Assembly: GCA_038087875.1 (NCBI GenBank)
Contig: CM075991.1
Coordinates: 10,728,001 to 10,792,000 of the forward strand
DNA from: Malacoraja senta
Lineage: Eukaryota
Direction: 5' to 3'
DNA length: 64,000 nt
In this document: positions 4,101 to 46,638 of the stretch, one piece after another
How the letters are laid out: every line of letters begins with the position of its first letter
Position numbering within the stretch: position 1 is the stretch's first letter
Made by a program: the position numbers and the translations under genes
The notes under the pieces: model-generated
Told to the model about the DNA's origin: nothing
Databases searched by the model: none
The model's input: the letters and a program-made list of their open reading frames with translations, nothing else

Positions 4101-7100
4101 CATTCCCCCCTCCGTTAGTTGCTCACCTCGTCAGCGCTGTTTCTGTCCTGGTCTTTCCTCTTCATCTTTTTCTTCTTCTTGTCTTCCTCTTTCTTCTTGT
4201 CTTTCTCCGGGAGGATGTCGTCCAACCAGGCCAGGTCGTGCTGGGTGAAGACTAGATCCAGCATCTTCCGCACGAGGATGAGTGCAAGGATCTAGCGCAT
4301 GGGTGGGAGTCGGGGTGAGACCTTGCAGATGAACAGTGTCCAACAACGCTGCCCTCGCTGAAGCAAACCCACCCGCAACCCTATTCCTTCCTCATAAAAG
4401 AATGAACCCGGGCCCTAAGGGCCTGTCCCACTGTACGAGCTAATTCAAGAGTTCTCTCGAGTTTCCCCCGATTCGAACTCGGAGAATTACGGTAATGGTC
4501 GCTCGTAGGTACTCGGGGCTCTCGTGGACATTTTTCAACAAGTTGAAAAATCTTCACTAGCTTACCGCGTTTCCCCGAGTACCTGCCGTTAGCGTTACGA
4601 GCCGCTAAGAGACGCCCCCGAGCTCCGACTTACCCGCTACGTACATTCTACGTGCTTACCACAAGTTTGATTTTTTTTTAAACTCGGGAGAGCTCTTGAA
4701 TTACCTCGTACAGTGGGACAGGCCCTTTAGAGAAACTCTTAGAACTTGTCAGAGAGTCAGAGCGTCGTACAGCACGGAAACAGGCCCTTTGGCCCTTCGG
4801 CCTAACGCCCACGCCAACCAAGATGCCCCATCTACGGTGGTCCCACCTGCCCGTGTTCGGTCCATATCTCTCTAAACTTTTCCTATCCATGTACCTCATT
4901 GAGTCCTGGAGTTATATAGTGTGGAAACAGGCCCTTCGGCCCAACTTGCGCACACTGACCAACATGCCCCATTTACACTCGTCCCACCAGCCCGTGATTG
5001 GCCCATAACCCTCCAAACCTATCCTATCCATGCACCTGTGCAAGCTTCTTTTAAATGTTGCTTTAGTTCCAGCCTCAGATACCTTCTCTGGCAGCTCGTT
5101 CCATACACCCGTCACCCTCTGTGTGGAAAGGTGCATGCCCACCCAGGATAGAAGGCTCTGTGCATTCACCCTATATATGATTTTGTACACCTCTAGAAGA
5201 TCACCCCTCAGCCCCCTAGTACTTATCCTCATGAGTGTCTGATGCAGATTTGAGACTTTTTCCAATACAGCTCCTTAATAAATGTAGGTAGGCAGAATCT
5301 CTGGAGAGAAGGAATGGGTGACGTTTCGGGTCGAGTCCCGTCTTCAATCTGAAGAAACGTCACCCATTCCTTCTCTCCAGAGATGCTGCCTGTCCCGCTG
5401 AGTTACTCCAGCATTTCATGTCTCTCTTCGGTCAAAACCAGCATCTGCAGTCCCTTCCTACACATAGAAACATAGAAACTAGGTGCAGGAGGAGGCCATT
5501 CGGCCCTTCGAGCCAGCACCGCCATTCATTGTGATCATGGCTGATCGTCCCCAATCAATAACCCGTGCCTGCCTTCCTCCCATATCTCTTGATTCCACTA
5601 GCCCCTAGAGCTCTAACTCACTATCTAACATAATAAATGCAGGTTGTTGATTGATATGAAGTCTACTCCCCTCATGAATGGCTGCAAAGTATTGACATGT
5701 CTTACCATAATGGGGAAAATGATGGCAGCCACGGTGGACTTTAAGATCCAGAGGACAGATAAGCAGATGACTTGCACCAAGGTGAATAGGTGGACCCGTC
5801 GAAGGGGCACGTGGCGAAGGTAGATGTAATCAGGCTGGTGCTTCGAGGGCATGAGGAAGAGTTTGCAGCGATCCCAAAACTGTGGAGGTCGGCACGGACA
5901 TAGAGCACAGGTTTAAAGATGCAAACGAGAACTTGAAGGAGACATGAAGGACTATGCTGAACATGGTAACGTGAGAAAGGGGCAGCTAAAATAAAAGACG
6001 TCTAAGGACAGAGAAAGAAATAGATAATGATAAAGGATGAACATACCTGAATACCATTTAATGAGGCCACGCCCATGTAAAGGAAGACTCCATAAAGTAC
6101 AGCCATTGGAATGTACTGGGGATAAACAAAGGACACCATGAAGATATTGCTGTACAACACTTTCCTGCACATGCTTAGTTGGTTTAAGACCCTTCTGAGT
6201 AGCTACAAAGAGATATACCACCGATCTCACAGTACAGTTCCCTATTTCTCTCCTCATTCACTGTGTTTAAGGTGCTAGCCAGCATCTTCAGGGCTGATAA
6301 CCTCCATCAATTGTGTGACTTAAAAAGGGCCTGTCCCACGGGCATGCGACTGCATGCGGCAAGCGCGACCTAACCGGAAGCGGGGGCCGTGCGGGGGCCG
6401 GTCCCACTTCGATCGCCGGAGCCGCGTGGAGTTGTGCGGAGCTGGTCCCGACATCGCGCGGGGCTCCGAAAAAATGACCGTGTTCAAAAATTCCGCGCGG
6501 CAACGGCCTGCCGCCCCGCAGCCGCATCGAGGCCGTGCGCGCCGCATCGACGTGTACGCGCCGTCTTGACGTCACACGACCTCCGCGCGGCCCCCGCTTC
6601 CGGTTTGGTAGCGCTTGCCGCACGCAGCCGCATTCTGGTGGGACCGGCCCTGTACGGGGATCACTCGACCTCCGCGCGGCACCCGCTTCCGGTTAGGTCG
6701 CGCTTGCCGCATGGAGTCGTATCCCCGTGGGACAGGCCCTTTTAATGGTCTCAGGACAACACAAAGTAACATCACCAAGTAAACTTTAGCCTTTAGGGAT
6801 ACAGCGTGGAAACAGGCCCTTCTGCTCAGCTGACCAGCGATCACCTCGTACACTAGCACTATCAATAGACAATAGACAACAGGTGCAGGAGTAGGCCATT
6901 CGGCCCTTCGAGCCAGCACCACCATTCAATGTGATCATGGCTGATCATCCCCAATCAGTACCCCGTTCCTGCCTTCTCCCCATATCCCCTGACTCCGCTA
7001 TCTTTAAGAGCCCTACACACTAGGGACATTTCACAGTTTACAGAAGCCAATTAACCGACAAATCTGCATATTTAGTTAAATTTAGTTTAGTTTAGAGATA

Positions 7101-10100
7101 CAGCGCAGAAACAGGCCCTTTCGGCCCACCGGGTCCACTACGACCAGTGATCCCCACACATTAACACTATCCTATACCCACTAGGGACAATTTTTACATT
7201 TACCGAGCAAATTAACCTACAAATCTGCACGTCTTTGCAAAGTGGGAGGAAACCGGAGCACCCGGAGAAAACCCACGAGGTTACGGGGAGAATGTACAAA
7301 CTCCATACGGACAGCACCCGTGGTCAGGGTCGAAGCCGGGTCTCTGGCGCTGTCAGGCAGCAACTTTACCGCTGCGCCACCATGCCGCCCTAACATGCAT
7401 CCTAGTGCAAAATGCAATGACTAATCTTTGAAAGTAAGGGTCAACTTCCTTCCTGTTAAAGGCAGCGAGATTCTGAAGTTTCCAACACGGATTAAGGTCA
7501 TAAGTGATAGGAGTAAAATTAGTCTACACTTAGGCTTGGGTAGAGTGGATGTGGAGAGGATGTTTCCACGAGTGGGAGAGTCTAGGACTAGAGGTCATAG
7601 CCTCAGAATTAAGGATGTTCCTTTAAGAAGGAAATGAGGAGGGAATTCTTTAGTCAGAGGGTGGTGAATCTCTTTGCCACAGAAGGCTGTAGAGGCCAAG
7701 TCAAGTCTACTCCGCCATTCAAACATGGCTGATCTATCTCTCCCTCCTAACCCCATTCTCCTGCCTTCCCCCCATAACCTCTGACACACATACTAATCAA
7801 GAAATCTAATCAGGATTGTTGCTGTTTAGCCGGAAATCTGACCTTCAGAACTGGAGCGAGGAAGACGGAGACTCCCGTGAGAATGAAGACCACGAGACCG
7901 GTAAATCTTTGTTCCCTGGAGAAGGAAAATAGACATTCAGAAGCCATTCAAATTAAAGAAAGTTGCTCAATAAACCTACCTTAGCGTCACAGAAACCAGA
8001 GAGAGATACAGCACCGAAACAGGCCCTCAGCCCATCAAGAGTGTGTGTTAGTACGGGTGTCAGGGGTTATGGGGAGAAGGGGAACATTAATCGCCAAAAG
8101 ATCTATTTAATTTAAATGGAAAGACTCTAACCCTCCGACCACACTCCAGTGGTACTCTGAAACGATATCATGTTTAAATTTAGAAAAAATCAGGAGTGAC
8201 ATTGTTGAACCCTTGGTTAAATTTGATAAGACTTGGGGAAAATTCATTCAACACTTTCACACAACATAAACTGCTCCCTCTCTAACTGTTATAAAAATTA
8301 TTTTACCTTTATATGGTGGAACGGACTTGACGACAAGCAGGGACTTAAATTGTTGAAATTCTCAGCTTAGATTTCTGCTTTGCTTTTTTTCCCCTCTAGT
8401 TTAGGGGGGGGGGGGGGGGTTTCTTCCTTTTTTCTCTTTTTTTCTTTTTTTTTCTTTTTATCGTCTTTGTTTTCCTACATATATAAGTTTTCTTTTAAAC
8501 ATTTAACTATATTTACATAGAGACCGGGAGGTCTATATTCAATGTGTATTTTGATACTGGACTCATATTTAGGTTATACCTGTTATTAATGTAATCCTGA
8601 TCCCTATGTATCAATATCATTGTTGTGTTTATCGTTATTCTTTTTGTTTTGTTTTAGTTTTCTTGGAAAAAAGCTAATAAAAAGATTTTAAAAGAAAGAA
8701 AGAAAGAATGGGGTTGAGAGGGAAAGGTAGATCAGCCATGATTGAATGGCAGTTGACTTGATGGGCTGAACGGCCTAATTCTGCTCCTAGAACTCATGAA
8801 CAGCCATCACGCTGTCTGTACAGTTTGTACGTTCTCCGTGTGACTGCGTGGGTTTTCTCCGGGTACTCTGGTTTCTCCCACATTCCAAAAACGTAGGTTG
8901 ATTGACCTCTCCAAATTGTAAATTGTCTCTCGCGTGTAGGATAGTGTTGGTGAACGAGGTGATCGCTGGTCGACACAGACCCGGTGGGCTGGACAAGCTG
9001 TGTCACTAAAGTCTAAAGTATATTTCCAAACTCTAACAGTTAGACTGGCCAATACTCCTATGGTCATTTGTCAAGTTGAGGATGTCAAACCCAGGACCTG
9101 TGTTGTGTACGAAGGAGCTGCAGATGCTGGTTTAAACCGAAGATAGACGCAAAACGCTGGAGTAACTCAGCGGGTCAGGCAGCTTCTCAGGAGAAAAGGA
9201 ATGGGTAACGTTTTGGTTCGTGACCCTTCTTCAGACTCAGGGGTAAGGGAAACGAGAGATATAGATGGTGATATATGATGAGCGTTTGATGGCACTGGGC
9301 CTGGAGTTTAGAAGGACAAGGAGGGACCACATTGAAACTTATCAAATGGTGAAAGGCTTGGATAGAGTGGATGTGGAGAGGATGTTTCCACTAGTGGGAG
9401 AGTCTAGGACTAGAGTTCATAGCCTCAGAATTAAGGATGGTCCTTTAAGAAGGAGATGAGGAGGAAATTCTTTGGAGGGTGGTGAATCCCATTGCTACAG
9501 AAGGCTGTGGAGACCAAGTCAATGGATATTTTTAAAGCAGAGATGGATAGATTCTTGATTAGTATGGGGGTCAAGGGTTATGTGGAGAAGGCAGGAGAAT
9601 GGGGTTAGGAGGGCGAGATAGATCAGCCATGGCAGAGTAGACTCGATGGGCCGAATGGCCTCGTTCTGCTCCCATCACTATGACCTTATGAACTGCAGAA
9701 GGTAGAGAAAAGTGCTGGAGGAACTCAGCGGGTGCGGCAGCATCTATGGAGCGAAGGAAATAGGCAACATTTCGGGCCGAAACCCTTCTTCAGACTGATA
9801 GACAACTGCAGACACTGGTTTTGACAAAAAGACAAAGTGCTGGAGTATCACTTATGATATTGAGAGATTTTAAACAAATGAATGAAAGATATGCAAAAAC
9901 GTAACTATGACAAAGGAAACAGGACGTGGTTATCTTGCTGTGCGAGCGAAAACATGTATAGCCGGCGGCGTCGCGAGCACCTACCTCACCCCGAGGAACT
10001 GCGGCTGCTCTCCTGGTGCGCTGGTTTCGGTTTCCATTTTCAGACCGTCAATGTGGGCGATGGAAATCACGGTGGCCGCCACGTACCAGGGCAGCCCCAT

Positions 10101-13100
10101 GAAGGAGCAGGCGCCCATCAGCAGACCAACCCAGAACAGGTCCAGGTGGTAACCGGCGCCTTTCTGCAGTAGAAGTGGAGGAATATTGTCAACCCAAATG
10201 CCAATCCGCTTCTGGACATCTTTAACACAAATACCATTAACGAGGATGTCGCCAGGGCTAGAGGGTCTGAGCACTAACTCCAGCCATGCCATGCAATTTT
10301 GTCTACCATTGTCCTTAACATCAGGTCTTTTACAAGACCTGATGTTAAGGACAATGGTAGACAAAAAATGCTGGAGAAACTCAGCGGGTGAGGCAGCATC
10401 TATGGAGCGAAGGAATAGGTGACGTTTCTGGTCGAGATCCTTCTTCAGACTGTCTCGACCCGAAACGTCACCCATTCCTTCCCTACAGAGATGCTGCCTG
10501 TCCCGCTGAGTTACTCCAGTATTTTGTGTCTATCATATGGAGTGTGGCGGTGCTGAGTATATGTGTGGGGGGTGGGGGAAACCGTTAGTCTCTTCCCTGT
10601 ACGGGGATCCGACTTTTTCCCTGTCGGGTCCCCGGTGTCGTTGGGCCTGACATCGAGGAGGCCTCCAACCTGAGGGCTCCAGTCGCGGAGCCTGCGGATT
10701 CGCCATCGCGGAGCTGGTCGACTTCGGAGCGGGGAGAGTTGTGGTGGCGCGCGGCTGCGACCCGACTTCGGAGCTTCGGAGGCTCCGGCCGCAGGCCAGG
10801 TGGACGGGAACATCGGGAGCTCGCAGGTCCCTGGTGGGAGACCGCTTTTCGGGGCTCCCGCAACGGCAACTTCTCCCGCCGGAATCGTGGGGTTTAAATG
10901 ACTCGGAGCAGGGACTAACATCGCCCGGCGCGGCTTAAACGGCCGCGGGACTTACCATCGGCCGCCGGGGGGCTTTAACATCATGAGCCCCAGTCGCCTC
11001 GACGTTGGACTGCTGGACCGCGGGAGATGAACAAAGGGAAGAGATAAGACTTTTGCCTTCCATCACAGTGAGGAGGTGTTGGAGATTCACTGTGATGGAT
11101 GTTTGTGTAAATTGTGTTAAGTGTGTGTCTTGGTTTTTTTGTAATGTCAGGTCTGCAGGAATGAAATTTCGTTCAAGCCTTGCCTGTTTGACTGACAATA
11201 AAAGGCATTCTATTCTATCTTATGACCTTTAGGTATGTTACTGAGGGGCTTGATGTTCACCGCCTTTACCAGCAGTTGCTACGGAGACGAGGCAGGTCAG
11301 GGTGCGGAGGCGGTGACCTGTGACCTGTGACCTGTGACCTACCCTCAGCTTGTTCTCCTTCCTGTTTATAATCACTCCGGTGATCTGTTGGTCCATGAAG
11401 ATGAGGATTGTGACGAGGAGAGCTGGCAGAGCGCTGGCCAGGTAGACCCACCAGGGGTTTTTCCCGAAGGGAACAACAAACCACCCTCTGTCTGCACGTG
11501 TCGGCTACAGGGGGAGGGGTGAAAGAGATGGACATTCCGTTAGTCTGCACGTCACTCAGTCCTGACCACAGCGCGCTTGCAGAACAATGGCAGGGCATGG
11601 TGGTGAATCGGTGTAATTCTTTGCCACGGACGGCTGTGGAGGCCAAGTCAATGGATATATTAAAGGCAGAGATAGATAGATTCTTGGTAGGTACGGGCGT
11701 TTGGAATATTCTGAGCAATTTTTTGGCACGATATTTGAGGAGGGATGTGCTGGCTCTGGAGAGGGTCCAGAGGAGGTTTACAAGAATGATCCCAGGAATG
11801 GGGCCATTAACTCCAACCTATGATGAGCGTTTGTCGGCACTGGGCCTGTACTTTCTGGAGTTTAGATGAATGAGGGGGGAACTCACGGAAACATACAGAA
11901 TAGTGAAAGGCTTGGATAGAGTGGATGTGGAGAGGATGTTTCCACTAGTGGGAGAGTCTTGGACTGGAGGTCATAGCCTCAGGATTAAAAGACGTTCTTT
12001 TAGGAAGGAGATGAGGAGAAATGTCTTTAGACAGAGGTTGGTGAATCTGTGGAATTCTTTGCCACAGAAGGCTGTGGAGGCCAAGCCAATGGATATATTA
12101 AAGGCAGAGATAGGTAGATTCTTGATTAGTGCGGGTGTCAGAGTTTATGGGGAGATGGCAGGAGAATGGGGTTAGGAGAGAGAGATAGATCAGCCATGAT
12201 CGAATGGCGGAGTGGACTTGATGGGCCAAATGGCCTCCTATCACAAGACAATGGACCCTGTTTTAGTTTAGAGATACAGCGTGGAAGCAGGCCCTTCGGC
12301 CCAATGAGTCCGTGTTGACCATCAATCACCATTCACACCAGTTCTATGTTGCCCTACCCTCTCGTCCACTCCCTAGGATCCCCCGCACACGAACACAATC
12401 CCACGCACACTGGGAACAATTTACGGAAGCCAATTCCACGCAGGTCACAGGGCGAGCGTACAAACTCCGCACAGACAGCACCTACAGTCAGGATCGATCC
12501 GGGGGCAATTTTCAGGGGGCCAATCAACCAACAAATCCACGAGTCCTTGGGATGTGGAGCACCGGAAGAAACCCACGCGGTCAAGAGAGAGAACGTGAAA
12601 ACTCCGCACAAACAGCACCCGAGGTCAGGATTGAACCTGGATCTCTGGCGCTGTGAGGCAGCGGATTTACCAGCTGCACCACCATGCCGCCGTATTCTTG
12701 TACCATAGGATGGATGAGAGAAGAGGACCTTCCCAACTAGCCACTTAGTTTGGTCATTTCTCTACACAATATATTCAAGTTAAGAAACTAAACACTAAAC
12801 AATTTTTCCCCTCATTTCTTTAATTTGGTGGCCACTATACTGTTTTATTTCCCTCCTGCAATAAGCATCACATGTGACCTGATCACTATCTTGAGGTTAC
12901 GTCATCCCTTATTCATTTAAAACTTTCCAGCATTCACACAGTGGAGTTGAACGATGGCTATGATTTATCAGCAAGACCTATCGTAAAAAGAATAAAATGA
13001 TTTTCTCCCCTGAAAATGGATTGTTCTCAAAATAAAATCCAGACAAAAAACGGACAGTGTTTTGCTTTTAATCTGGTGGACAGATTAACCTTGGCATGGC

Positions 13101-16100
13101 ACCTTTGAGACTTGACTGGTTTCTGACCCAAACCAGTGCATTGTGCAGTTTAGGTTGCTCTTTGGACTTTACCCTTTAGAGATCTTCTTTTTGCGTACGG
13201 CATGCACAGCTTAAAGTTGTCGACAACTTGTTCTATTTGATTGTGCACGCCGGGTTGATTGCATTCGTCGAAACATGGCGGACCACGTGAAGGTTGCAAT
13301 CTCCCACCCCAACCCTTTAGAGATATAGCGTGGAAACAGGCCCTTATCCCACTGAGTCCAGCGATCGCCCCGTACACGAGCACTGTCCTACACACTAGGG
13401 ACAATTTATAACTTACAGGAGCCAATTCACCTACAAACCTCCATGTCTTTGGAGTGTGGGAGGAAACCGGAGCACCCGGAGAAATCCCACGCGGTCACAG
13501 GGAGAACGTACAAACTCCGTACAGAGAGCACCTGTAGTCAGGATTGATCTCAGGTCTCTGGCACTGTAAGGCAGCATCTCTACAGCTGTGCCTCCGTGCC
13601 GCCCATTATAAATTCCTAACATGACTACATTGAAGGGGCACCAACTTTCTCCTTCACCGACAAACAGATTGCAAATGGAAGTAGGGTCATTATAACCAAC
13701 ACAAAACAAAAATCTGCCTCCACATTTGTCTCATGATCTGAGAGACCCTTTGCAGATCCATTATCCAGTACAACATTCAAAGTTAGCTAATGACTTTAAC
13801 TTACCACCTTGCAACGGCAAAGTTAAAATGCTTTGGATTTTACCTTCAGTTCCGTGGGCACTTGGAGTTTTGGTGTGTTGAGTCCAAAAAGCATATCAAT
13901 CCCAACAAAAATCAGAATAGTCGCGAAGATAGAAAAGTCGCTGATAAGTTTGCGGAGCTTAGAGAGAAGGACCCAAGAGTTGGGAAATCATCCAGAGACA
14001 GGCAGTGCAGAAGAAAGGAGGATGGATGGATGGATGAGGAAGAGAAAGAGGAAAGCATTAGAATAAACATTTTCAATGTCGGTTCGTGGGAAGACGTTGT
14101 GCTTCACCTCAAATAATGTCTTTCACATCAAATTTCCCCAACTGGAGAAGAGTTTCGTTTAGTATAGAGATACAGCAAAGAAACAGGCTTTTAAGCCCAC
14201 CGAGTCCACACCAACCTTCAATCACCTGTGCAGGAAGGAACTGCAGATGCTGGTTTACACCCAAGATAGACACAAAATGCTGGAGTAACTCAACGGGACG
14301 GGCAGCATCTCTGGAGAGAAGGAATTGGGTGACGGACGGTCTCGACCCGAAAGGTCACCCATTCCTTCTCTCCAGAGATGCTGCCTGTCCCGCTGAGTTA
14401 CTCCAGCATTGTGTGTCTACCAGGGTTGGGTTAGATGTCCATGCACCCTTCCTCTGCTCATTCCAGGCCAACCATGGTATCAGATAATGCCACTGCTTTT
14501 CAGATGGTCTTGAGAGACTAGACTTAAGGAGTAAAGTTGAGCGTTGAGAGTAGCCAAGTTTGGCTTGAAAATGATTGTGAAAGCAGTGTAAAAGAGGCGG
14601 GAGAGAATAGAGAGGCTACCTCTTCAGCGTGACACCATGCAGCACTAAGTCGGTCAGACCTGCGGGCACGGATGTAGTTTAAAGGGTGAAGAGTAGAAGG
14701 TGTACAGGGGGGGAGGGGGTGAGGGGGTGGGGGGTGGGAAGCAGCCAAGTGCTATTCAGACCTTGATTCTGCTGGGGACATGCAGCTTGGGGGTGTCCAG
14801 TCCGACTACAGCATCGATCCCACAGAACACAAGGATGGAGATAACCGTGGAAAAGTCAGTGATCAAGCCCCGGATCTAGTGGAAAACAAAGGGGTGAGTA
14901 GAAATGGGGAAGGAAGGAAGGAAGGGAACAAACACATGCACTGTTGTGGGCCCCGTGCAGGAACAGGGGCGAGGGGAATTGGTCTGTTACCCCTGCAGAG
15001 TTAACTCAGCAGAAACAGAGAGGCTACAACAACAAACTCAACAAGGGCACTGAGGAATATATGCATTCAGTTCAGTTCAGTTTAGTTTTAGTTTAGTTTA
15101 GACAATAGACAATAGGTGCAGGAGTAGGCCATTCGGCCCTTCGAGCCAGCACCGCCATTCAATGTGATCATGGCTGATCATCCACAATCAGTACCCCGTT
15201 CCTGCCTTCTCTCCATATCCCCTAACTCTGCTATCTTTAAGAGCCCAATCAAGCTCTCTCTTGAAAGTATCCAGAGAACCTGCCTCCACCGCCCTCTGAG
15301 GCAGAGAATCCCACAGACTCACCACTCTCTGTTTTAGTTTAGTTTGGTTTAGTTTAGCTCAGGAATGAACTGCAAATGTTGGTTTATACCGAAGATAGAC
15401 GCAAAATGCCGGAATAACACGGTCAGACACATCTCTGGAGAACATAAATAGATGACGTTTCAGGGTTTTTGAGTGGGTGCTGACCCAAAACATCATCTAT
15501 TCCTTTTCTCCAGAGATGATGTCCAATCTGCTGAGTTACTCCAGCATTTTGTGTCTATCTTTAGTTTAGTCTGCTGTCCCGGTGAGTTTTATTGTCTGTA
15601 TAACTCGTTATCATCTAGCACACAACCAATAAATGTCCGTTTCCTTGATCATTGTTACTTTGTTGTATATCTTTAATTCATCTATTCTGTATCTCCCTAC
15701 ATCATTGCCTATATCTCTCATTTCCCTCTCCCCTGACTCTCAGTCTGAAGAAGGGTCTCGTCCTGAAAGTTGTAAACCTATTCCTTATCTCCAGAGAAGC
15801 TGCCTGACTCACTGAGTTACTCCAGTTTTTTGTCTCCCTTTAGTTTAGTTTAAGGGCCCGTCCCACTTTCACGACCTAATTCACGACCTTTTTTGACTCG
15901 TGGACATTTTTCATCATGTTGAAAAAACGCCCCGACCTACTTGATGCCACGAGTACCTACGACTAGCATCACGGCCTGCTACGACCTACCTACGACCTCG
16001 TGACAACCATGCTGCGAGTATGAGTCAAGGGCAAACTCGGCAGAGGTCGTGAATTAGGTCGTGAAAGTGGGACAGGCCCTTTAGTTTAGCTTAGAGATAC

Positions 16101-19100
16101 AGCGTGGAAACAGGCTCTGTGGCCCACTGAGTCCATGCCATCCATCAATCACCCATACACTATCACTATCCTATACACCAGGGAGAATTTACAGAGGCCA
16201 ATTAACTTACAAACCTGCACGTCTTTGGGATCTGGGGGGGAAAACGGAGTTCGTGGAGAAAAGACTTGCGGTCACGGGGAGAATGTACAAACTCCGTACA
16301 GACAGCACCCATAGTCCGGATCAAACCCGGGTCTCTGGCGCTGTAAGGTAGCAACTCTACCGCTGCACCACCGAGCTGCCGCTAAGGTCGTGGACCAACA
16401 ATGCCTACTTCTCTCACGGGAAGTTGGATGTTGCGGATCCATCAGACAGACCAAGCTCTGGACCGGGAAGGGACTTGACGCTGCCGAACCAGTGGGCCCA
16501 CTTACCTTGGTTGGGAAATAACGACTGGACTTGAACTTTTTGAGGGTCGTGGTCAGAGAGTAGGTGCCGAAGAAGAGGATGAAGGACATGAGGGCCAGGT
16601 CTGGGACATACTTGCAGGACTTGCCAACCAGGCTGCCACCGTACTTCAGGCACTCCTTCTTGCTGAGCTGGCTCCAGTCGAGGGCTGTGTTGTTGCCAAC
16701 ATTGTACTTGGGACAGAATGGAAAGAGTCAGTGTTAGCGCGTGGGAAGGAACTGGTTTACACTGAAGATAGACACAAAATGCTGGAGTAACTCAGTGGGG
16801 CAGGCAGCATCTCCGGAGAGAAGGAATGGGTGACGTTTCGGGTCGAGACCCTTCTTCAGACTGATGTCAGTCCTACTTTCCCTCATCCCATCTCTCCGGA
16901 GATGCTGCCTGTCCCGCTGAGTTACTCCAGCATTTTGTGTCTACATTCGAGTCAGTGTTAATGCTCGGCCGACCAAATACACTGGGGCTGACTGCCAGAC
17001 CGGCTCTTGGACCCCACTGTGAGCCCAGAGACCTGCTCTGTGAAGTCTACTCCTAACTAAGCAACCAAACAGTAATGGCATGCAACACCAAGTAACCGCA
17101 TCAGTAGAGGTGGGATGAAGGCTCCCAGAACCTTTTAGGTTTGGGTTTAGGTATATTATTGTCGTGTATACCGTGAGGCACAGTGAAAAGATTTTTTTTT
17201 TAATTAAAAAAAATATATATATATTTGTTAGAAGCAGTGTACAAAAATATAAGCAGTGGCATATGACATAATACAGTTATTGTACAGCTTCAGTTTTAAT
17301 TTTTAGCTAAAGTTAAGAGAAAAGAAGAGAGAGAAAGCAAGAGAGAGAAAAAGTGGAATGTGTAAGGATAGAACCCCTGGACTGGCAAACTGGTGTCGCC
17401 AAAGAGTGAGTAAGTAGAAGAAATAAGGATGACGTCGAGAAATAAAAAGACAAAAACAGAAAGAAAAACAGAAGGTGATGATATACCTGCCTCGTGTCCC
17501 TCCCCACCCATCACCCAACCCGTAATTAGATTTAACTCCAAAATTGTGTTGCATCATACTATCCTTGTAAGTGAAAAGCTTTGTTTTGCAGGCTCTTCCA
17601 AAGCATGGATTTGGATAAACCATCGAAATGGGTAATGATCAGATATTATACATAAAACAATCAAGTCCAACTCCAGTACAACAGATAGAGCAAAGGGGGA
17701 GATACAGAGTGCAGAATATGGTTCTCAGCATTGGAGCGCACCAGTTCCAGAGACAAAGTCCAATGTCCGCAGTGGGGTAGAGGTGAATCGGACAGTACTC
17801 TTGCTACACAAGGGTGGTTTATAACCCTGATAACAGAGGGGAAGAAGCTGTTCCTGAGTCTGGTGGTGTGCACTGACAAGCTTCTGTTCCTTCTGCCGGA
17901 CGGGAGCGGGGAGAAGAAGGAATGGGACAAGTCTTTGATTATGTCGGCTGCTTTTCCAATCAAGTGTAGATGGAGTCAATGGTGGGGAGTCTGGTCTGGG
18001 TGATGGACTGGCTACATCTACAACTCTCTTGAACTTTTGTCTCGTTTAGTTTGGAGATAGGAGCGTGGAAACAGGCCCTTCGGCCCACCGTCTATACTGA
18101 CCAGCGATCACCCATAGACGAGTTCTATCCTACCAATTTACAGAAGCCAATTAACCTACAAACCTGCACGTCGTTGGAACGTGAGAGAAAACTGGAGCAC
18201 CCGGAGAAAACCCAGGCGGTCAAGGGGGAGAACGTAGAAGCTCCACATACAGACAGTGCCCGTAGTCAGGATCGGACCTGGGTCTCTGGCGCAGTGAGGC
18301 AGCAACTCTACCGCTGCGCCAACGTTCCGCGGAACTCAGTGACCCAAACATTTGGGAATGTGACTGAAGAGAACAACTCTTGCTGGGCTGAAGATAGGAA
18401 AACTGAAAAAAATTGTGGAAACTGCAAACTTACCAAATAAATATTAGTGTTGTTAAACGCCAGTGATTCTGAAGCGTTGAAGAAGGTTGTGTTCACTGCG
18501 AGGCAATAAAAGAGAGTCATTAGTTTGATGAACTACATCTCGCCAATATAGATTTGAAATTTCCCAACCCCATTCGCTTTCTATAGACAATAAACAATAG
18601 ACAATAGGTGCAGGAGTAGGCCATTCGGCCCTTCGAGCCAGCACTGCCATTCAATGTGACCATGGCTGATCATCCACAATCAGTACCCCATTCCTGCCTT
18701 CTCCCCATATCCCCTGATTCCTTGATGATGCTGCCTCAAAAAGGCTGGCAGCATCATCAAGGACCCACATCATCCTGGCCACACACTCATCTCCCCGCTA
18801 TCTTCGGTACAGGAGCCTGAAGACTGAAACGTCCAGGTTCAGAAACAGCTTCTTCCCCACAGCCATCAGGCTATTGAACTCAACTCAAACAAAACTCTGA
18901 ACATTAGTTGGTATGTCCCATTTGCGTAATGCTCATAAAAAATATTTGTTTCTCCCTTTTTCCTCTTTCTCTTTCTCCTTCTTTTCTAGGGTTTATTTCT
19001 TAACTCTTTTTCTTTTGTTTTTAATTTTGTTCTTATAGGGTCTTCGTCCTTTTTTGTTGTCACATTTTCTACACTCTCACTTTTTCCTTCACTTTCTTCT

Positions 19101-22100
19101 TTCTTTCAATCTTATCCTTTCCTTTTTCTAGTGTAAAAAATAAATGGAGTACATTAATTGTAAGAAGACATAAGTGACGAGTACTAATGTATGTGGTTGT
19201 AATGTAATGTACTTCTAATAAATTAAAAAAAAAAAAAAAAATACTCTGAACATTAATAGCCCATTATCTGTTTATTTGCACTTTATCAGTTTTTATTTAT
19301 TCATGTGTGTATACATTTATATAATGGTATATGGACACACTGATCTGTTCTGTATTCATGCCTACTATGTTCTGTTGTGCTGAAGCAAAGCAAGAATTTC
19401 ATTATCCTATCTGGGACACATGACAATAAACTCTCTTGAATCTTGACTCCGCTATCTTTAAGAGCCCTATCTAGCTCTCTGAAAGCATCCAGAGAACCAG
19501 CCTCCACCGCCCTCTGAGGCAGACAATTCCAGACTCACAACTCTCTGTGTGAAAAAGTGTTTCCTCATCTCCGTTCTAAATGGCTTACCCCTTATTCTTA
19601 AACTGTGGTTTGAGATTGAGATTGATATTATGCACTGAATTTGTTTTTCTTTATATCTCTTCTCTCCACAGCCATTTTTTTTCTGGAGAAATTACCTTGC
19701 TTTTATCGGGAGAAGTTGTTTCTCTGCTCTGTCTTTGGACCAAATCAATGGACTGCTTTACAATTGACTGTTCTCTCTGAACCCAGAGGCCTACCCTGCC
19801 TCAAGTACCATGGCTGGTGTCGATAAAATACTTGGTTGTGTAAAAAGAATAATCCTCCATTAAAACTCTCCATCTCCAGTGTGATCACTAATCATTTTCT
19901 TCCGCTCCTCCGTGAAGGGACCGCATCACCCCGATCCTGGCCTCTCTCCACTGGCTCCCTGTGCGGTTCCGTATACATTTCAAGATCCTCCTCTATGTCT
20001 ACAAAGCCCTCAATGGGCTTGCCCCCACCTACATTAAAAGTCTTCTCACCCACCACTCCACCTCCAGGTCCCGCAGATCGGCCGACTTGGGGTTGCTGAA
20101 TATCCTTCTTGGCATAAGCTCAGGGGCGACCGTGCCTTTGCGGTTGCAGCTCCTAGACTGTGGAACAGCATCCCCCTTCCCATCAGAACTGCCCCCTCCT
20201 TCAACTCCTTTAAGTCAAGACTAAAAACATATCTATACTCCCAAGCCTTTCTTGACGTCCTCTGAGTGAGGGCTACATGTATATATGTATGTAGTTTGTT
20301 TGTTTATATTATTCTTATAACAATTGTAAAGCACTTTGGCCAACGAGAGTTGTTTTTTAAATGTGCTATATAAATAAATGTGACTTGACTTGACTAAGCT
20401 GGGGGGCAGTGTTAGCTGTGAGGAGGATGCTAGGAGACTGCAAGGTGACTTGGATAGGCTGGGTGAGTGGGCAAATGTTTGGCAGATGCAGTATAATGTG
20501 GATAAATGTGAGGTTATCCACTTTGGTGGCAAAAACAGGAAAGCAGACTATTATCTAAATGGTGGCTGATTAGGAAAAGGGGAGATGCAGCGAGAGCTGG
20601 GTGTCATGGTACACCTGTCATTGAAAGTAGGCATGCAGGTGCAGCAGGCAGTGAAGAAAGCGAATGGTATGTTAGCTTTCATAGCAAAAGGATTTGAGTA
20701 TAGGAGCAGGGAGGTTCTACTGCAGTTGTACAGGGTCTTGGTGAGACCACACCTGGAGTATTGCGTACAGTTTTGGTCTCCAAATCTGAGGAAGGACATT
20801 ATAGCCATAGAGGGAGTACAGAGAAGGTTCACCAGACTGATTCCTGGGATGGCAGGACTTTCATATGAAGAAAGACTGGATAGACTTGGCTTATACTCGC
20901 TAGAATTTAGGAGATTGAGAGGGGATCTTATAGAAATGTACAAAAATCTTATGGGGTTGGACAGGCTAGATGCAGGAAGATTGTTCCCGATGTTGGGGAA
21001 GTCCAGGACAAGGGGTCACAGCTTAAGGATAAGGGGGAAATCCTTTAAGACCGAGATGAGAAAAAACTTTTTCACACAGAGAGTGGTGAATCTCTGGAAC
21101 TCTCTGCCACAGAGGGTAGTTGAGGCCAGTTGATTGGCTATATTTAAGAGGGAGTTAGATGTGGCCCTTGTGGCTAAAGGGATCAGGGGGTATGGAGAGA
21201 AGGCAGGTACGGGATACTGAGTTGGATGATCAGCCATGATCATATTGAATGGCGGTGCAGGCTCGAAGGGCCGAATGGTCTACTCCTGCACCTATTTTCT
21301 ATGTATCTATGTATCGATGTTTGATCTTGTTGTCACAATAAATGATAAAGACTGGGTCAGAATATGAAACTAATCCATCTTATCAGTGGAGAAACAAGGA
21401 ACTGTAGCTGCTGGTTTACAAAAAAACAACAACAATGTGCTGGAGTAACTCAGCAGATCAGGCAACGTTTCTGGAGGATGTTTCGGGTCGGGGCCCTTCA
21501 TCGGATTCAATCAGACTCTTAATTATTTTTTATACATTTATGTGTCCAAAATTCATTTTTTATACAGTGGTTATAGACTCTGTGGAAATTCACATGATCC
21601 ATTCCCCTCGTGATTTTCTACACCTCTATAAGACCACCCTACAGCCTCCTGCGCTCCAAGGAATAAAATCCTAGTCTGGCCAACCTTTCCCTATAGCTCA
21701 GGCCCCCAAATCTCTTGCAGCTCATGAAATTTCCGGCGACCTGCTGCGACTATGACGGGTGAAAATGCTGAAAATGCCACCATGCTATTGGACTTTGCCA
21801 CCAACCCTGCCAGCACGCCCCACACTCTCAGTGTAAAAACGTTTTAAAACTTTGCGCCTTTTTGGCTTTTGGCTCTGCCCTCTGATATTTGACATTTCCA
21901 CCCTGGGAAAAAGGTTCTGAATGTCTACCCTATCTGCGCCCCTCATAATTTTAGAGATTTCAATCGCATCTCCCTTCAACCTCTGGCATTCCAGACAAAA
22001 CAATTCAAGTCTGCAGCATGTAGAGGCAACTCAAAGTGGCTGGTTAGTCTACTGAAGGCCTATTGAAGTTCAATGGTTTCTTTACCATCACGTGTACCAA

Positions 22101-25100
22101 GGTACAGTTAAATATTTTTTTTGTACAAAATTAGCCCTGTACATAAAGACAAACCCTCTGGTTAATACCGAATGTACAGGACAGCCCATTGAGTCAACAT
22201 GCAAGAGGCACCATTTTGACACCATTTCACACCTAGGACAAAGGTCTTTCGCAGTTGCCACCTCCACACATCTTTAGGAAGTTGGGAGGAAACCTACACA
22301 CAGTTACAGGGATGTAGATACAAAATCTGGAGTAACTCAGCAGACAGGCAGCAACTCTGGAGAGAAGGATTGGGTGACGAAGGGTCTCGACCCCGAAACG
22401 TCACCCATTCCTTCTCCCCAGAGATGCTGCCTGTCCCGCTGAGTTACTCCGACCTTTTGTGTCCATCTTTGGTTCAAACCAGCATCTGCACGGTCACAGG
22501 GGGTACGTGCAAACGCCGCGCAGTTTAGCACCGGACGTCAGGGTTGCTGAGCCGCGAGGCAGCAGCTTCACTGGACCGCACCCAACGCAACGCTCTGGGA
22601 GCAGTGAGGCTTCTAACATGCAAAGCAGCAAGCCATGCGAGGGATCGAAGGTGTGGTGATCAGAGGTGCCCTTTAGAATGGAGGACTTTGATTGCAAAAG
22701 CCCCCATTCTCAACACTTGTGCGAGGCAGCCATCTACCATCTACCCAGTCTCAGTCACTAGTCTAGACAAAGCATTGGGAGACATCAGAGACGAGGAGAG
22801 TCCTTATTGATTACTTACTCAGATGTGAAAGCACCAAACAGTGTTTGCAGCAAATATGAAAGCAGTTAATAAGGCGTTACAATAGTTAAATTAACAGAAC
22901 TTGGAAAAATCATATTCATCATATAGTTCATAAAATCTTAGGAGCAGAGTTAGACCATTCAGCCATCAAGTCTACTCCGCCATTTTGATCACGGCTGATC
23001 TATCTTTCCCTCTCACCGCATTCTCCTGCTTCCTGAAGGGTGTGGATGACTTTCTGAAGTCAATGGATATTTTTAAGGTAGAGATAGATAGATTCTTGAT
23101 TAGTACGGGTGTCAGGGGTTATGGGGAGAAGGCGGGAGAATGGGGTTAGGAGGGAGAGATAGATCAGCATGATAGGGTAGCAGAGTAGACTAGATGGGCA
23201 GAATGGCCTAATTCTGCTCCTATCGCTTATGATATAACCTTCTCCCATAACCCTCGACACCGTTATTAATCACGAATCTGGCAATCTCCGCCTTAAAAAT
23301 ACCCAATGATTTGGGCCTCCACAGCCGTCTGTGACATTGAATTCCACAGATTCACCACCCTCTGACTAATAGCCCTGTCCCACTGTACGAGTTCATTCCA
23401 AGAGCTCTCCCGAGTTAAAAAAAAAATCAACTCGTGGTAAGCACGGAGAATGAACGTAGCGGGTACGTCGGAGCTCGGGGACGTCTCTTAGCGCTAACGG
23501 CAGGTACTCGGGAAGACTCGCTAACGGCAGGTAAGCTCGGAAGACTCGTGAAGATTTTTCAAACATGTTGAAAAATGTCCACGAGAGCCCCGAGTACCGA
23601 CGAGCGGCCATTACCGTAAATCTCCGAGTTCGAATCAGGGCAAACTCGGGAGAGCTCTTGGAATGAACTCGTACCGTGGGTCAGGGTTAAAGCTTCAAAG
23701 AAAAGTCGCTTGGAGAGGAACGTTGCCAGTGGTCACCACGGGAAGGGGTAGGATTTTTACAGATTCATAAAAAGGTGCAGCACAGAAGTGGGTCCTTTAG
23801 CCCACCGTATCCGTTATGCCTCTCCGCGCTACTTCCATGGGCCCTGCATTAAACCCGTATCCCTCTTCACCTAGCCTGCTGAGTGACTCCAGCACTTTAT
23901 GTCTTTCTGTTGTAGACCAGCACCTGCAGTTTCCAATGTCTACATTTTACTGCTCCACCGAGAAATCTCCTCAAGGTACGCCTACTCTGAAGAAAGTCAT
24001 AGAGCGGGAGCAGTGAGAAAGGGTTTCACAGAACTGCCAGAGAGAGGAGAACTTCTTCAGTGGAGGAAGGAACTGCAGATGCTGGTTTAAACCGAAGATA
24101 GACACAAAAAGCTGGAGGAACTCAGCGGGACAGGCAACGTCTCTGGAGAGAGAAGGAATGGGTGATGTTTCGGGTCGAGACCCTTCTTCAGAATACAGTT
24201 CAATCATATCGTATCGTACCTGTGTCTGGAGCCTCACACTCACACTTGTACATGGTCACATAGTCAGGTTTGTAGAAGGGGTTGATGGGGTAGTACTTGA
24301 AGGCTCCGATCATCTTCTTGATGGCGTCGTAGATGAAGATGAAGCTGATGAGCATGGAGAAGCCTCTTCCGTGAACGCGTGATGTACTTGATAATGAAGC
24401 TGGCGTCCGTGGCGACCAGAAGAAGGCATTGTAAGGCGGAATGGAGGCCAATCCAGAGCCGGAATTCCAGGTAGTCTATGCCATTACTCCTGCAGGACAG
24501 AGACATGACATTAGTCATAGAGTAATTCGGAGACACACCACAGAACAAAGCCCTTGGCCAACTATCGCAATGTTTAAGAAACATTTAGACATACATGGAT
24601 AGGATGGATTAGAAAGATATGGGCTAAATGCCAGCAGATGGGATTAGTGTGGATGGGAGGTACACAAAATGCTGGAGAAACTCAGCGGGTGCAGCAGCAT
24701 CTATGGAGCGAAGGAAATAGGCAACGTTTCGGGCCGAAACCCTTCTTCAGATCCTAGTGTAGATGGGACCTGTTGGTCGGCTTGGGCAAGTTGGGCCACT
24801 GTATGACTCCTTGACTCAAGTCCGTGCCAAACCATTAATCACCCATGATACATTCACATCCTTTAATCCTATTTTCTATAGACAATAGACAGTAGGTGCA
24901 GGAGTAGGCCATTCGGCCCTTCGAGCCAGCACCGCATTCACTGTGATCATGGCTGATCATCCACAATCAGTACCCCATTCCTGCCTTCTCCCTATATCCC
25001 CTGACTCCGCTATCTTTAAGAGCTCTACTTCTCATGATCCCTTCAACTCTGCCCGAATCCTACCACTCAACTACCAATTTACAGAGGGCCATTGAAGCCA

Positions 25101-28100
25101 CCAACCCGTACGTCTTTGGGATGTGGGAGGAAATCAGAGCACCGGGAGGGAAACCCATAGGGCCACAGGGAGAAAGGTGGAAATTCCACACAGACTGCAC
25201 CAGAGGTCAGGATCGAACCCGGGCCCTCTGGCGCCATGAGGCAGCAACTCTACCGCTGCGCCAATGTGCCCCCACGCACACCCCTTCCGCTCCCTACACA
25301 TTTGGGGCAATCTCTACAAACCTGCATTGTTTTTGGGAAGTGGGATGAAGCCAAATGAAACACGCGCGGTCACATAGAAACATAGGAAACATAGAAATTA
25401 GGTGCAGGAGTAGGCCATTCGGCCTTCGAGCCTGCACCCACCATTCAATATGATCATGGCTGATCATCCAACTCAGTATCCCGTACCTGCCTTCTCTCCA
25501 TACCCTCTGAACCCTTTAGCCACAAGGGCCACATCTAGCTCCCTCTTAATATAGCCAATGAACTGGCCTCGACTACCCTCTGTGGCAGAGAGTTCCAGAG
25601 ATTCACCACTCTCTGTGTGAAAAAAAGTTCTTCTCAGCTCGGTTTTAAAGGATTTCCCCTTATCCTTAAGCTGTGACCCCTTGTCCTGGACTTCCCCAAC
25701 ATCGGGAGCAATCTTCCTGCATCTAGCCTGTCCAACCCCTTAAGAATTTTGTAAGTTTCTATAAGATCCCCTCTCAATCTCCTAAATTCTAGAGAGTATA
25801 AACCAAGTCTATCCAGTCTTTCTTCATAAGACAGTCCTGCCATCCAGGAATCAGTCCTGGTGAACCTTCTCTGCACTCCCTCTATGGCAATAATGTCCTT
25901 CCTCAGATTTGGAGACCAAAACTGTACGCAATACTCCAGGTGTGGTCTCACCAAGACCCTGTACAACTGCAGGTCACAGGGAGAACGTGCAAACTCGCGC
26001 GGACAGCACCCGCGATCAGGATTGAACCTGGGTCTTTGGCGCTGTAAGGCAGCTACTCTACCGCTGTGTCGCCCCCCTACGGTCTTGGAATTGCAATGCG
26101 TACATTCCTCATGTCGCTGCCGAGTCATAAGGCACACAAACAGGCTCTTCATGTCAGCAATGGAGCGACTTGAACACTTACTTGCTGAAGTCAAACAGCA
26201 GCTTTTCGAAGACGAGGATGGGGCCAGTGCTGCTCAGGATGGTGAGCGGCTGCCCAGCGAACAGACAGAAGATCGCACCGTAAACGCAGTGCCCAGGAAA
26301 CTCTCAATCACGCCCTGCACGGCAAAAAGCAAAGTCTTGTTATCCTGAAGTTTTCGTCACTTGGTTGGTGTTGACATGGCTGATCATCCCACACTCAGTA
26401 CCCTGCCCCTGCCTTCTCCCATATCCCCTGGCTCTATCTAACTCTCTCTTGAAAGCATCCAGTGAATTATCCAGTGAATTGGCCTCCACTGCCTTCTGCG
26501 GCAGAGAATTCCACAGATTCGCAACACTCTGGGTGAAATCATTTTTCCTCATCTCAGTCCTAAATGTCTTACCCCTTATTCTTAAACTGTGGCCCCTGGT
26601 TCTGGAATCCCCCAACATCGGGAACATGTTTCCTGCCTCTAGCGTGAGGTCAAAACCTAGGTTTAAAGTGAAGGCGGGAAAGATTTAATAACTTTTTTAC
26701 ACAAAGGGTGGTGGGTGTATGGAATGAGCTGTCAGAGGAGGTCGTTGAGGCTGGGACTATCACAATGTTTAAAAAACATTTAGACAGGTACATGGATAGG
26801 TCAGGTTTAGAGGGTTATGGGCCAAGCGCGGGCAAGTGGGACCACAGAGTAACGGCATGGTCTGAAGGCTTGGTCTGAAGACTTGAGGTGCACACTTGTC
26901 CCTAAACCCTGTCTTCCTAATGTAGACAAAAATGCTGGAGAAACTCAGCGGGTGAGGCAGCATAACTTTAAAGGCGAGGCCCCTGTTGAGAACAGGAGTG
27001 AGTTCTGTGTGAGGAAAAGGGGTCAGAGCGGATGGTAAAAACACAAGAGTGGGGTTGAGATCACCCTCCCCGACTCTGTCTGATGAAGGGTCTCGACCCA
27101 AACGTCACCTACACATTTTTGTCCAGAGGTAGACACAAGTGCTGGAGAAACTCAGTGGGTGCAGCAGCATCTATGGAGCAAAGTAAATCGGCAACGTTTT
27201 GGGCCAAAACCCTTCTTCAGACTGATGTAGGGTTGGGGCGGGGAGAAGAAAGGAGAAAGGAAGAGGAGGAGCCCGAGGGCTGAAGGAGAGCTGAGAAGGG
27301 GAGGAGACAGCAAGGGCTACCGGAAATTGGAGAAGTCAATGTTTATGCCGCTGGGGTGCAGACTGCCCAAGCGGAATATGAGGTGCTGCTCCTCCAATTT
27401 CCGGTGGTGCTCACTCTGGCCATGGAGGAGACCCAGGACAGAAAGGTCGGATTTGGAATGGGAGGGGGAGTTAAAGTGCTGAGCCACAGGGAGGTCAGGT
27501 TGGTTAATGCGGACCGAGCGGAGGTGTTGGGCGAAGCGATCGCCAAGCCTACGCTTGGTCTCACCGATGTAGAGCAGCTGACATCTAGAGCAGCAGATGC
27601 AATAGATGAGGTTGGAGGAGGTGCAGGTGAACCTCTGTCGCACCTGGAACGACTGCTTGGGTCCTTGAATGGAGTCGAGGGGGGGAGGTAAAGCGACAAG
27701 TGTAGCATCACCTGCGGTTGCAAGGGAAAGTGCCCGGGGAGGGGGTGGTACGGGAGGGAAGGGAAGAATTGTCCAGGGAGTTACGGAGGGAGCGGTCTTT
27801 GCGGTAAGCAGACAGGGGGGGGAGATGGGAAGATGTGGCGAGTGGTGGAGTCACGTTGGAGGTGGCGAAAATGACGGAGGATTATGATAGACTCAAAATG
27901 CTGGAGTAACTCAGCGGGTCAGGCAGCATCTCTGGATAGAAGGAATGGGTGACGTTTCGGATCGAGGCCCTTCTTCAGACTGAGCCTGGAGCTGAGGACT
28001 CGATATTCCAGTTGACAACAATGAGAACAAACGTGAGTCTAAACAATTCATGCATCACCCACCCAGCGCATACTATGGCATCTGATTCTGTTCATACTTC

Positions 28101-30923: not shown

Positions 30924-30964
<41 letters not shown>

Positions 30965-31235
30965 CCCATCCACCCATCCACCCATCCACCCATCCACCCA
31001 TCCACCCATCCACCCATCCACCCATCCACCCATCCACCCATCCACCCATCCACCCATCTACCCATCCACCCATCTACCCATCTACCCATCTACCCATCTA
31101 CCCATCTACCCATCTACCCATCTACCCATCTACCCATCTACCCATCTACCCATCTACCCATCTACCCATCTACCCATCTACCCATCTACCCATCTACCCA
31201 TCCACCCATCTACCCATCTACCCATCCACCCATCC

Positions 31236-31282
<47 letters not shown>

Positions 31283-37200: not shown

Positions 37201-38520
37201 CCGGCTTGCCATGGTGCGACAGCATGGAGCGTGGTCAGGAATGTGCATGCAGGACTAAGCCCCATCCTCGTGATCCCAGTCAATAGCAATCTGCTGCTTC
37301 ATAATCTGATTAACAATTTAAAAATGCAGCATAATTTATTGTAACTAAACAAAGGTGAATCAAACTTCAATCCGTTGTTTTTCACACCCAAGGTATGCAG
37401 TGGGCAGGGGCTATAGACCTGCACGGGAAGGTAGACGCTCCCGCCCCCACGAGTCTCGGGCAGATGGGGCTCGTCAGCCTGGGAAGGCAGTCCATCTCGG
37501 AGAGAGAAAACACTGATTTAAAACCTCCACTGCCTTGTGGCCATATCCGGTCATGGAAAAGGCCCCAGGAGTAAACCTCAAGAAAATCCGGAGTCGGAGC
37601 CCCTAAGGCAGTTCGTCGCTGGTGCCAAACTGTAACGGCCCCGCTGTTCCTTTGGATCGATCAACGACGTGGAGAGGGGGAGACGTGCTGCATGGGCAAC
37701 AGCCTGTCCTCCATATGACATCGCCCATGCTTGCATCCGACCAGGATGCATCACCCACGGTCAGTCATGACCGAGAGGGGCCTACTAAAGTATGCAAAGA
37801 GTGGCCACATAAAGGGCGCCGACTAATTTACAACATATCTCACGCCAGGTCCTCCTTTGTTGTAACCCCCCCCCTCCCTCCCTCCCACTGAGTAATGGTC
37901 TCTGTTCTCAGTCTCGGTGAGTAACTGCGGGGTATTAAATAATTTAACCGAAATGGGAATGAAAGTGCACTTCCTTAAAGTTGAAAACTATTGAAGAATT
38001 GAGGGGGAAAAAACCCCATTGCAGGATACAAGTTAACTCGCCACGCTTGGTATTTACCTGGTCAGTGCTGGGAGTGTCTGCGATATCATTCATGCTTCTG
38101 CTTTGAGCATGTCCTATAATGATAAAGAAGGCACAGAGGTTAGTTTGAAATTCGAGGGACAATTGAGGATAAGGAACCATCGTAACACAGGAGCTTGGTG
38201 AGGGTGGGGGGGGGGGGGGGGTTGGAATTGGGGAAGAGGCTTCAAGTTGCCGGAGAGCGGCACAGTTTCGACATCAACCAAAGGAGGGGGGTGCATGCAC
38301 GGGAGCTGCATGCAACGCCTGCATCTTGGTTACCCGGCCACCGGGTGAGGTGGGCTGGTGACTTACGTAGCCGGCCATAACTGGAAGATTGCCTCATCCC
38401 CAAGTCCTCAGTGGAGCGGTAATTGTTTGCCCGAGTGCCGGGTGATCGGCTGGGGCTCCGAGCTGCAGGTCACTCAATAATTCAAGCAGTTAGTAAGGGA
38501 AGAAATACACATATATACAG

Positions 38521-38596
<76 letters not shown>

Positions 38597-46454: not shown

Positions 46455-46638
46455 CTATGGACAACGGGGGAGAACAGAGAAACCGCGTCACATTATCCGT
46501 TACACATCCCTCGAGGAGACCAGCACCCACTCAACATGCCTTAGTGTCTGAACATACTCTTGGCTCTTTCAATGGCTGGATGGTCAACAAACCTCTTTCA
46601 TAAAAAATTTGGACACAAAGTGCCAGAGTAACTCAGCA

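Follow-up and report, generated by a model that had tools for sequence, protein, structure and literature searches.

A tandem pair of TM7/EL4 exons in slc4a5 (NBCe2), apparently ancient and probably used as alternative cassettes

Introduction

The closest described relatives of the locus reported here are tandem duplicated exon substitutions, for which the cited parts of PMC9741552 and PMC8373072 give 236 human events, and the vertebrate-wide exon pair 4a/4b of OGDH, in which, according to the cited part of PMC7969005, the choice of copy is enforced by branch points that lie within ~50 nt of the donor, the intron being short and free of insertions. Within the SLC4 family, splice variation is known for the NBCe2 gene itself: the portion of PMC4664831 used here lists variants a–g and a cassette epsilon, an optional 16-aa insert that is there called the sole membrane-domain cassette of the family. 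Extracellular loop 4 (EL4) has attracted attention for other reasons. Electrogenicity changes when it is exchanged between NBCe1 and NBCn1 (Chen 2011, cited in PMC4664831), in AE2 it influences pH sensitivity (PMC4664831), and it binds carbonic anhydrases (PMC3867943), as far as the consulted portions of these papers go.

In this report we analyse a window of 64,000 nt from the skate Malacoraja senta (GCA_038087875.1, contig CM075991.1, positions 10,728,001 to 10,792,000; all positions below count from the start of this stretch unless another locus is named), in which a first-pass annotation had seen two tandem copies of an slc4a5 exon encoding TM7 and the start of EL4 and had proposed that they form a mutually exclusive switch. 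We find that the pair is real, ancient and apparently undescribed, and that its copies are probably alternative cassettes, predicted to tune an electrogenic NBCe2 without switching its electrogenicity.

Results

The first question is whether gene and exons are what they had been taken for. Coding exons of slc4a5 were mapped by tblastn from 46488 to 4127, the last ones not being found inside the window, and apart from frameshifted or intron-padded alignments they are 82–100% identical to the NBCe2 model of Leucoraja. This identity runs through both the cytosolic and the membrane domains and bears out the assignment to SLC4A5/NBCe2. The exons needed below are the following.

4127..46488, minus strand: slc4a5 (NBCe2) coding exons mapped in the window (tblastn)
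16506..16706, minus strand: upstream constitutive exon of 201 nt, end of EL3, TM6 and cytosolic loop, donor AAG/GTAAGT
14762..14875, minus strand: copy a, TM7/EL4 exon of 38 codons, type kept in placental records, weak donor GTCTGA
13844..13957, minus strand: copy b, TM7/EL4 exon of 38 codons, type kept in marsupial records, donor GTAAAA
11343..11504, minus strand: downstream constitutive exon, second half of EL4 and TM8

Elsewhere in the gene, an exon of ~34 codons for the cytosolic domain, at 38466–38365 on the minus strand, matches shark and stingray models and is missing from the Leucoraja and Rhinoraja models used; it is probably an optional cassette.

Copies a (14875–14762) and b (13957–13844) are each 114 nt long, flanked by AG and GT, in phase 0 and free of stops, and the intron between them measures 804 nt. 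Identity between the copies amounts to 21 of 38 residues and 66 of 114 nt; 8 codons are identical, 13 synonymous and 17 changed. Coordinates, frames and peptides all agree with the first-pass annotation, as do the flanking donor at 16506 and acceptor at 11504, between which a and b are the sole coding exons detected by tblastn. With 38 aa each, 21 of them identical, and no exon between, they fall under the definition of consecutive homologous exons that asks for at least 7 aa. In a search of the 1.94-Gb genome each peptide retrieved the other copy at E ~5e-6, and just two further places matched, both of them single TM7 exons of paralogues (on C1 and C22), so that the twin match is not a matter of chance. 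Copy a aligns to residues 680–716 of human NBCe1 (chain 6caa_A), and the reading of the pair as TM7 plus the first half of EL4 of NBCe2 holds. Of the 70 matches of a search with b, one was labelled S4A4; the others bore the name NBCe2 or SLC4 anion exchange protein, or were hypothetical or unnamed.

The slc4a4-like paralogue, located on C1, served as a control. No second TM7 copy was found in the 30 kb of skate genome scanned there, a control that is incomplete because a 200-N gap lies 0.9 kb before the TM7 exon and the TM6 exon was not found. In the same gene (L002:2929-3114, G000:C1) the exon after TM7 stops after ~16 codons and its start is repeated ~160 nt later; this locus is likely misassembled locally.

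Two one-base frameshifts in coding exons upstream of the pair, at 26279–26278 and 24375–24374 on the minus strand, raise the possibility that one copy is a relic, or the skate gene a pseudogene, with no functional alternative. However, because both sit in short homopolymer runs (GG, TT), they are likely assembly errors, the other mapped exons are as similar to Leucoraja as stated above, and the same assembly also has its slc4a4-like paralogue locally misassembled. Moreover, copy b is identical to that of Leucoraja erinacea at 38/38 residues and copy a at 36/38, b being also the better conserved of the two across vertebrates, which makes loss of function a highly improbable explanation.

The splice sites had been called weak, which holds for the donors of a (GTCTGA) and b (GTAAAA), both weaker than the upstream GTAAGT, but not for the acceptors, with 16–17 pyrimidines of 20. 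None of the hard blocks that enforce mutually exclusive exons (steric, frame/NMD, U2/U12) was found: 114 nt preserves the frame whichever copies join, all sites are GT-AG with no U12-type donor by comparison with the U12 consensus, and b is not blocked sterically, since the 804-nt intron holds 38 internal AGs and a repeat insertion and the branch candidate of b lies ~700 nt from the a donor. The intron carries four elements.

14662..14752, minus strand: pyrimidine tract just behind the a donor, candidate splicing regulatory element
14654..14661, minus strand: AG and second copy of the a-donor hexamer, 101–108 nt into the intron, possible cryptic or recursive site
14258..14428, no strand assigned: inverted-repeat insertion (dispersed repeat, long hairpin) with 71-nt arms, 89% complementary
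13960..14101, minus strand: AG-free zone of 142 nt ahead of exon b; a branch-point-like CTAAT lies ~101 nt upstream of b

The 91 nt behind the a donor are 77% C/T against 37–64% behind 16 other donor-like sites of the gene, the highest share among the 17 measured, several of which were located just roughly. In read-through proteins the share of F/S/L/P behind a (0.49, n = 21) exceeds that behind b (0.32, n = 12; p = 1e-4) and that behind the slc4a4 exon (0.40, n = 28; p = 0.013), a proxy on related sequences that hints at a conserved element behind a. The AG with the donor-hexamer repeat (14661–14654) closes a 90-nt AG-free pyrimidine tract. In a pipefish model (P0497) a is joined to b via 22 extra residues, intron-like at their start, which suggests a second donor 66 nt behind a. 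A conserved mechanism based on competing RNA structure seems unlikely: the intron folds strongly (z −9.9), but this fold is that of the inserted inverted repeat, and the long inverted repeats sit in dispersed repeats. Repeat copies in opposite orientation also flank exon a (14256–14333 with 15430–15836; 70 nt at 84% and 65 nt at 80%); they could loop the exon out in competition with the local hairpin and are probably lineage-specific.

The second important result is the age of the pair. NBCe2 records came from three homology searches, three look-ups of clusters and a profile search; unrelated or fragmentary cluster members, such as tetraspanins, short metagenome proteins and partial records lacking the region, were not counted. 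Records with both copies, a before b, come from sharks, rays, gar, teleosts, frogs, turtles, lizards, one snake, birds and platypus. In a tree of 51 segments and 38 columns, whose bootstrap had not settled, 23 a rows stand together on one side of a branch (support 98/89) and 23 b rows also group, weakly (78/84); label shuffles on this tree require ~16 changes. Counted over 113 distinct a and 72 distinct b segments drawn from 509 records, mean identity per 38 positions is 26.3 within a, 30.9 within b and 22.1 between them. The split of sharks and bony fishes lies more than 400 million years back, and the simplest reading is that the pair likely arose once before it and that both copies have been kept since. 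Lamprey, hagfish, chimaera, coelacanth and bichir were not among the named matches, and the duplication is dated no further than jawed vertebrates. Selection on both copies, suspected from codon differences, fits their conservation across this whole range, each with fixed residues of its own, and functional single-copy transporter isoforms are likely, as predicted from the sequences, for a and for b. The age of the pair, together with the marsupial records described next, is what the first-pass annotation had missed.

Among mammals, placental records carry a alone in 108 of 109 cases (58/58 and 50/51), human NP_001373065 and mouse NP_001159539 included, and neither copy in one. Marsupial records carry b alone (31/31; 24/24 and 7/7), and five monotreme records give a, b and a+b. 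The human segment matches skate a at 27/38 and skate b at 22/38, that of opossum b at 29/38 and a at 20/38. Placentals were first found via an a-directed search (best 120 of 244 matches) and marsupials via a b-directed one, among whose 70 matches there was no placental; cluster members, which were not picked by twin exon, show the same split. Judged from protein records, a reciprocal loss is likely, placentals and marsupials having each lost the opposite copy. The claim that mammalian SLC4A5 resembles a is right for placentals.

Do a and b exclude each other? Models of the same length with a only and with b only exist in Rhinoraja (1030 aa), Xenopus tropicalis (1126), Leptodactylus (1129), Corvus kubaryi (1140) and Solea solea (1102), which is the pattern that a substitution pair predicts and which favours the proposed alternative use of a or b. 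Co-inclusion was counted over the cluster members of multi-isoform model sets, mostly named 'isoform Xn', models of that name resting on RNA reads. Both copies are joined in 20 of 34 models of cartilaginous fishes (single-copy 14/34), 12 of 32 of teleosts (20/32) and 4 of 20 of non-therian tetrapods, all four from turtles (15/20, one turtle model skipping both), and in none of 11 from amphibians. Single-copy models amount to 49/86 overall, in a sample that leans towards a+b because the clusters were seeded from matches of exon-directed searches, many of them a+b.

Of 24 rows of sequencing runs 18 were RNA by guess, with small shares; four runs were mapped to 11300–16750, where dispersed repeats dominated the tables. 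Run X1 (RNA by guess, from a related organism, and picked for holding words of the slc4a5 stretch) gave a 181-nt contig at depth 3.27, whose bases 66–181 span the whole of copy a and end at the donor of a. The mean depth of the b bin implies 64.8–65.4 bases at depth 3.27, 65 contig bases remain, nothing falls in the flanking-exon bins, and cross-mapping is precluded by the dissimilarity of a and b, so the contig likely joins a to b, a DNA origin being possible. Runs X6 and X7 cover flanking-exon bins at depth 1–2 and neither copy, and X2 covers no exon. Strictly mutually exclusive exons are never found together; with a+b models common in fishes and turtles, and this one contig likely joining a to b, the proposal of strict exclusion is not supported, and the pair belongs among tandem duplicated exons, not among strictly exclusive ones. 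The 20/34 models and the lone informative contig also mean that single-copy transcripts are not established as dominant.

An a+b protein had been judged improbable on the argument that an extra helix would invert the downstream topology, which is not compelling. The start-transfer activity of TM7 is only weak in band 3, where TM8 behaves like an internal type I signal anchor that draws upstream segments into the membrane, according to the cited part of PMC3784385, and an a+b chain could insert b as TM7 and leave a outside the membrane. AlphaFold2 models of the ray proteins had too low confidence for use (mean pLDDT 35.5 for a+b and 44.1 for b-only). Another reading takes a+b as a third isoform and regulated major product in fishes and turtles, with b as TM7 and a as a 38-residue cytosolic insert, or acting as a dominant-negative dimer partner. 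The model counts given above, the preserved frame, the behaviour of TM8 in band 3 and the fact that the only exon cover seen in X1 is the likely a–b contig all agree with it. However, the a+b share is inflated by the way the clusters were seeded, annotation retains rare junctions, the 11 amphibian multi-isoform models have none, X1 was selected for its slc4a5 words and has a depth of 3, and copy a retains full transmembrane hydrophobicity and is the only TM7 that placentals have. We consider this explanation unlikely.

The third result concerns what distinguishes the copies. All 113 a segments have C at position 18, where all 72 b segments have V; position 11 carries I/V in a and, in 71/72 segments, F in b; position 3 is K in 71/72 b and 6/113 a; position 32 is H in 107/113 a and I/Q/R, never H, in b; and position 37 is mostly I in a and F/L in b. 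Of the EL4 charge swaps stressed earlier, H/Q at position 32 holds across vertebrates, but D/N at position 27 is merely a tendency and R/E at position 36 is lineage-specific, E being the commonest residue in both copies. Position 28 is T in 185/185 segments, as in NBCe1, in contrast to the P27-S28 of NBCn1 and NDCBE. This invariant T28 and the NBCe1-type loop start of both copies argue against an electroneutral form, and a switch of electrogenicity between a and b seems unlikely on sequence grounds. Copy b nevertheless agrees with the electroneutral NBCn1/NDCBE at positions 11 and 18, where a agrees with NBCe1, with which it shares C18, so that a and b may differ in transport mode.

These residues bear on the original proposal that the copies form a strictly exclusive switch and yield transporters of different electrogenicity or Na:base stoichiometry. 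It draws on the NBCe1/NBCn1 loop swap (PMC4664831, cited part), on the F11 and V18 that b shares with NBCn1/NDCBE, the C18 of a, and on the frog and bird multi-isoform models examined, which are all single-copy. Both copies nonetheless have T28 and neither has P27-S28, the exon covers just half of EL4, two of the three charge swaps are not conserved, marsupial records have b only, co-inclusion is seen and no steric, frame or U12 block exists, so we rate this proposal as rather unlikely too. Nor can the pair explain the variation of NBCe2 stoichiometry by cell type (PMC8534249, portion consulted), since it was shown in the human protein, which has a alone.

The fixed differences lie mostly in TM7, with one loop histidine, which suggests regulatory tuning. 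According to the cited part of PMC13263692, the rigid gate domain includes TM7 and is connected to the core by an extracellular arm, and below the cytoplasmic ends of TM6 and TM7 there is a PIP2 site with its tails on TM7; from this gate role, the PIP2 site and the known effects of EL4 we propose tuning by lipid, outside pH or turnover. Residue 3 (NBCe1 K681) is not named as a PIP2 contact in the main text of 10.1101/2023.06.26.546592, whose supplements may bear on it.

Discussion

The reading that we favour, and consider probable on isoform evidence consisting mostly of automatic gene models, is that a and b are alternative cassettes, one per working transporter, of an ancient tandem pair. 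The choice would be made by trans-acting splicing control, with weak donors, the pyrimidine tract behind a and the distant branch point before b, and in the absence of a hard block a+b transcripts would leak in fishes and turtles. With TM7 in the rigid gate and EL4 connecting gate and core, the fixed differences would change turnover or the response to lipid or to extracellular pH; they comprise basic residue 3, close to the described PIP2 site at the cytoplasmic end, TM residues 11 and 18 and loop histidine 32. The placental and marsupial lineages would then have lost opposite copies. A bolder version, which we regard as doubtful, holds that most jawed vertebrates switch by tissue between two NBCe2 transporters that differ in pH/PIP2 control or in stoichiometry, that in fishes a working a+b form exists as well, and that placentals and marsupials fixed opposite versions. 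If so, the single NBCe2 proteins of placentals and marsupials differ in function by exon sorting, and nature has performed an experiment on how TM7/EL4 sets SLC4 transport mode.

These cassettes matter for several reasons. First, by exchanging an entire helix the pair provides two natural variants of TM7 and half of EL4, both able to fold; chimeras have tied this region to electrogenicity without resolving it to residues, and the four near-fixed differences form a short, testable list. Second, the pair bears on acid-base physiology in fishes, frogs and birds, where it matters which isoform was cloned, and on annotation, as many a+b models may be non-functional. Third, it probably exemplifies the reciprocal loss of exons in placentals and marsupials. 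Published surveys of SLC4 variants draw on placentals, which have a alone on record, and list one membrane-domain cassette. The exons are present in automatic annotation; no printed description of an NBCe2 twin exon was found in literature searches, Parker and Boron 2013, which was beyond reach, being a place where it might be mentioned. SLC4A5 is absent from the supplements searched for PMC5740500, PMC9741552 and PMC8373072, a control gene being found in the last.

Set against the known systems, the pair most resembles tandem duplicated exon substitutions (PMC9741552 and PMC8373072, cited parts): in both, homologous exons of equal length follow one another, are ancient, lie in an ion transporter and keep key residues. 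SLC4A5 is missing from the human table, which fits the retention of a alone in humans, and the skate pair differs from the events listed there in its frequent co-inclusion models in fishes and in the opposite copies carried by placental and marsupial records. With OGDH 4a/4b, as described in the cited part of PMC7969005, it shares vertebrate-wide distribution, a pyrimidine tract behind the first donor and an extended AG-free zone; unlike that of OGDH, however, its intron is long, rich in AGs and interrupted by a repeat. Like the NBCe2 variants of PMC4664831, in the portion used here, it is splice variation of the NBCe2 gene inside the membrane domain, but epsilon is an optional insert and the pair, which is not listed in that portion, replaces a whole helix. 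Finally, the exon spans the first half of the loop swapped in the NBCe1/NBCn1 chimeras, from which it differs in that both natural copies keep an NBCe1-type loop start and most of their fixed differences lie in TM7.
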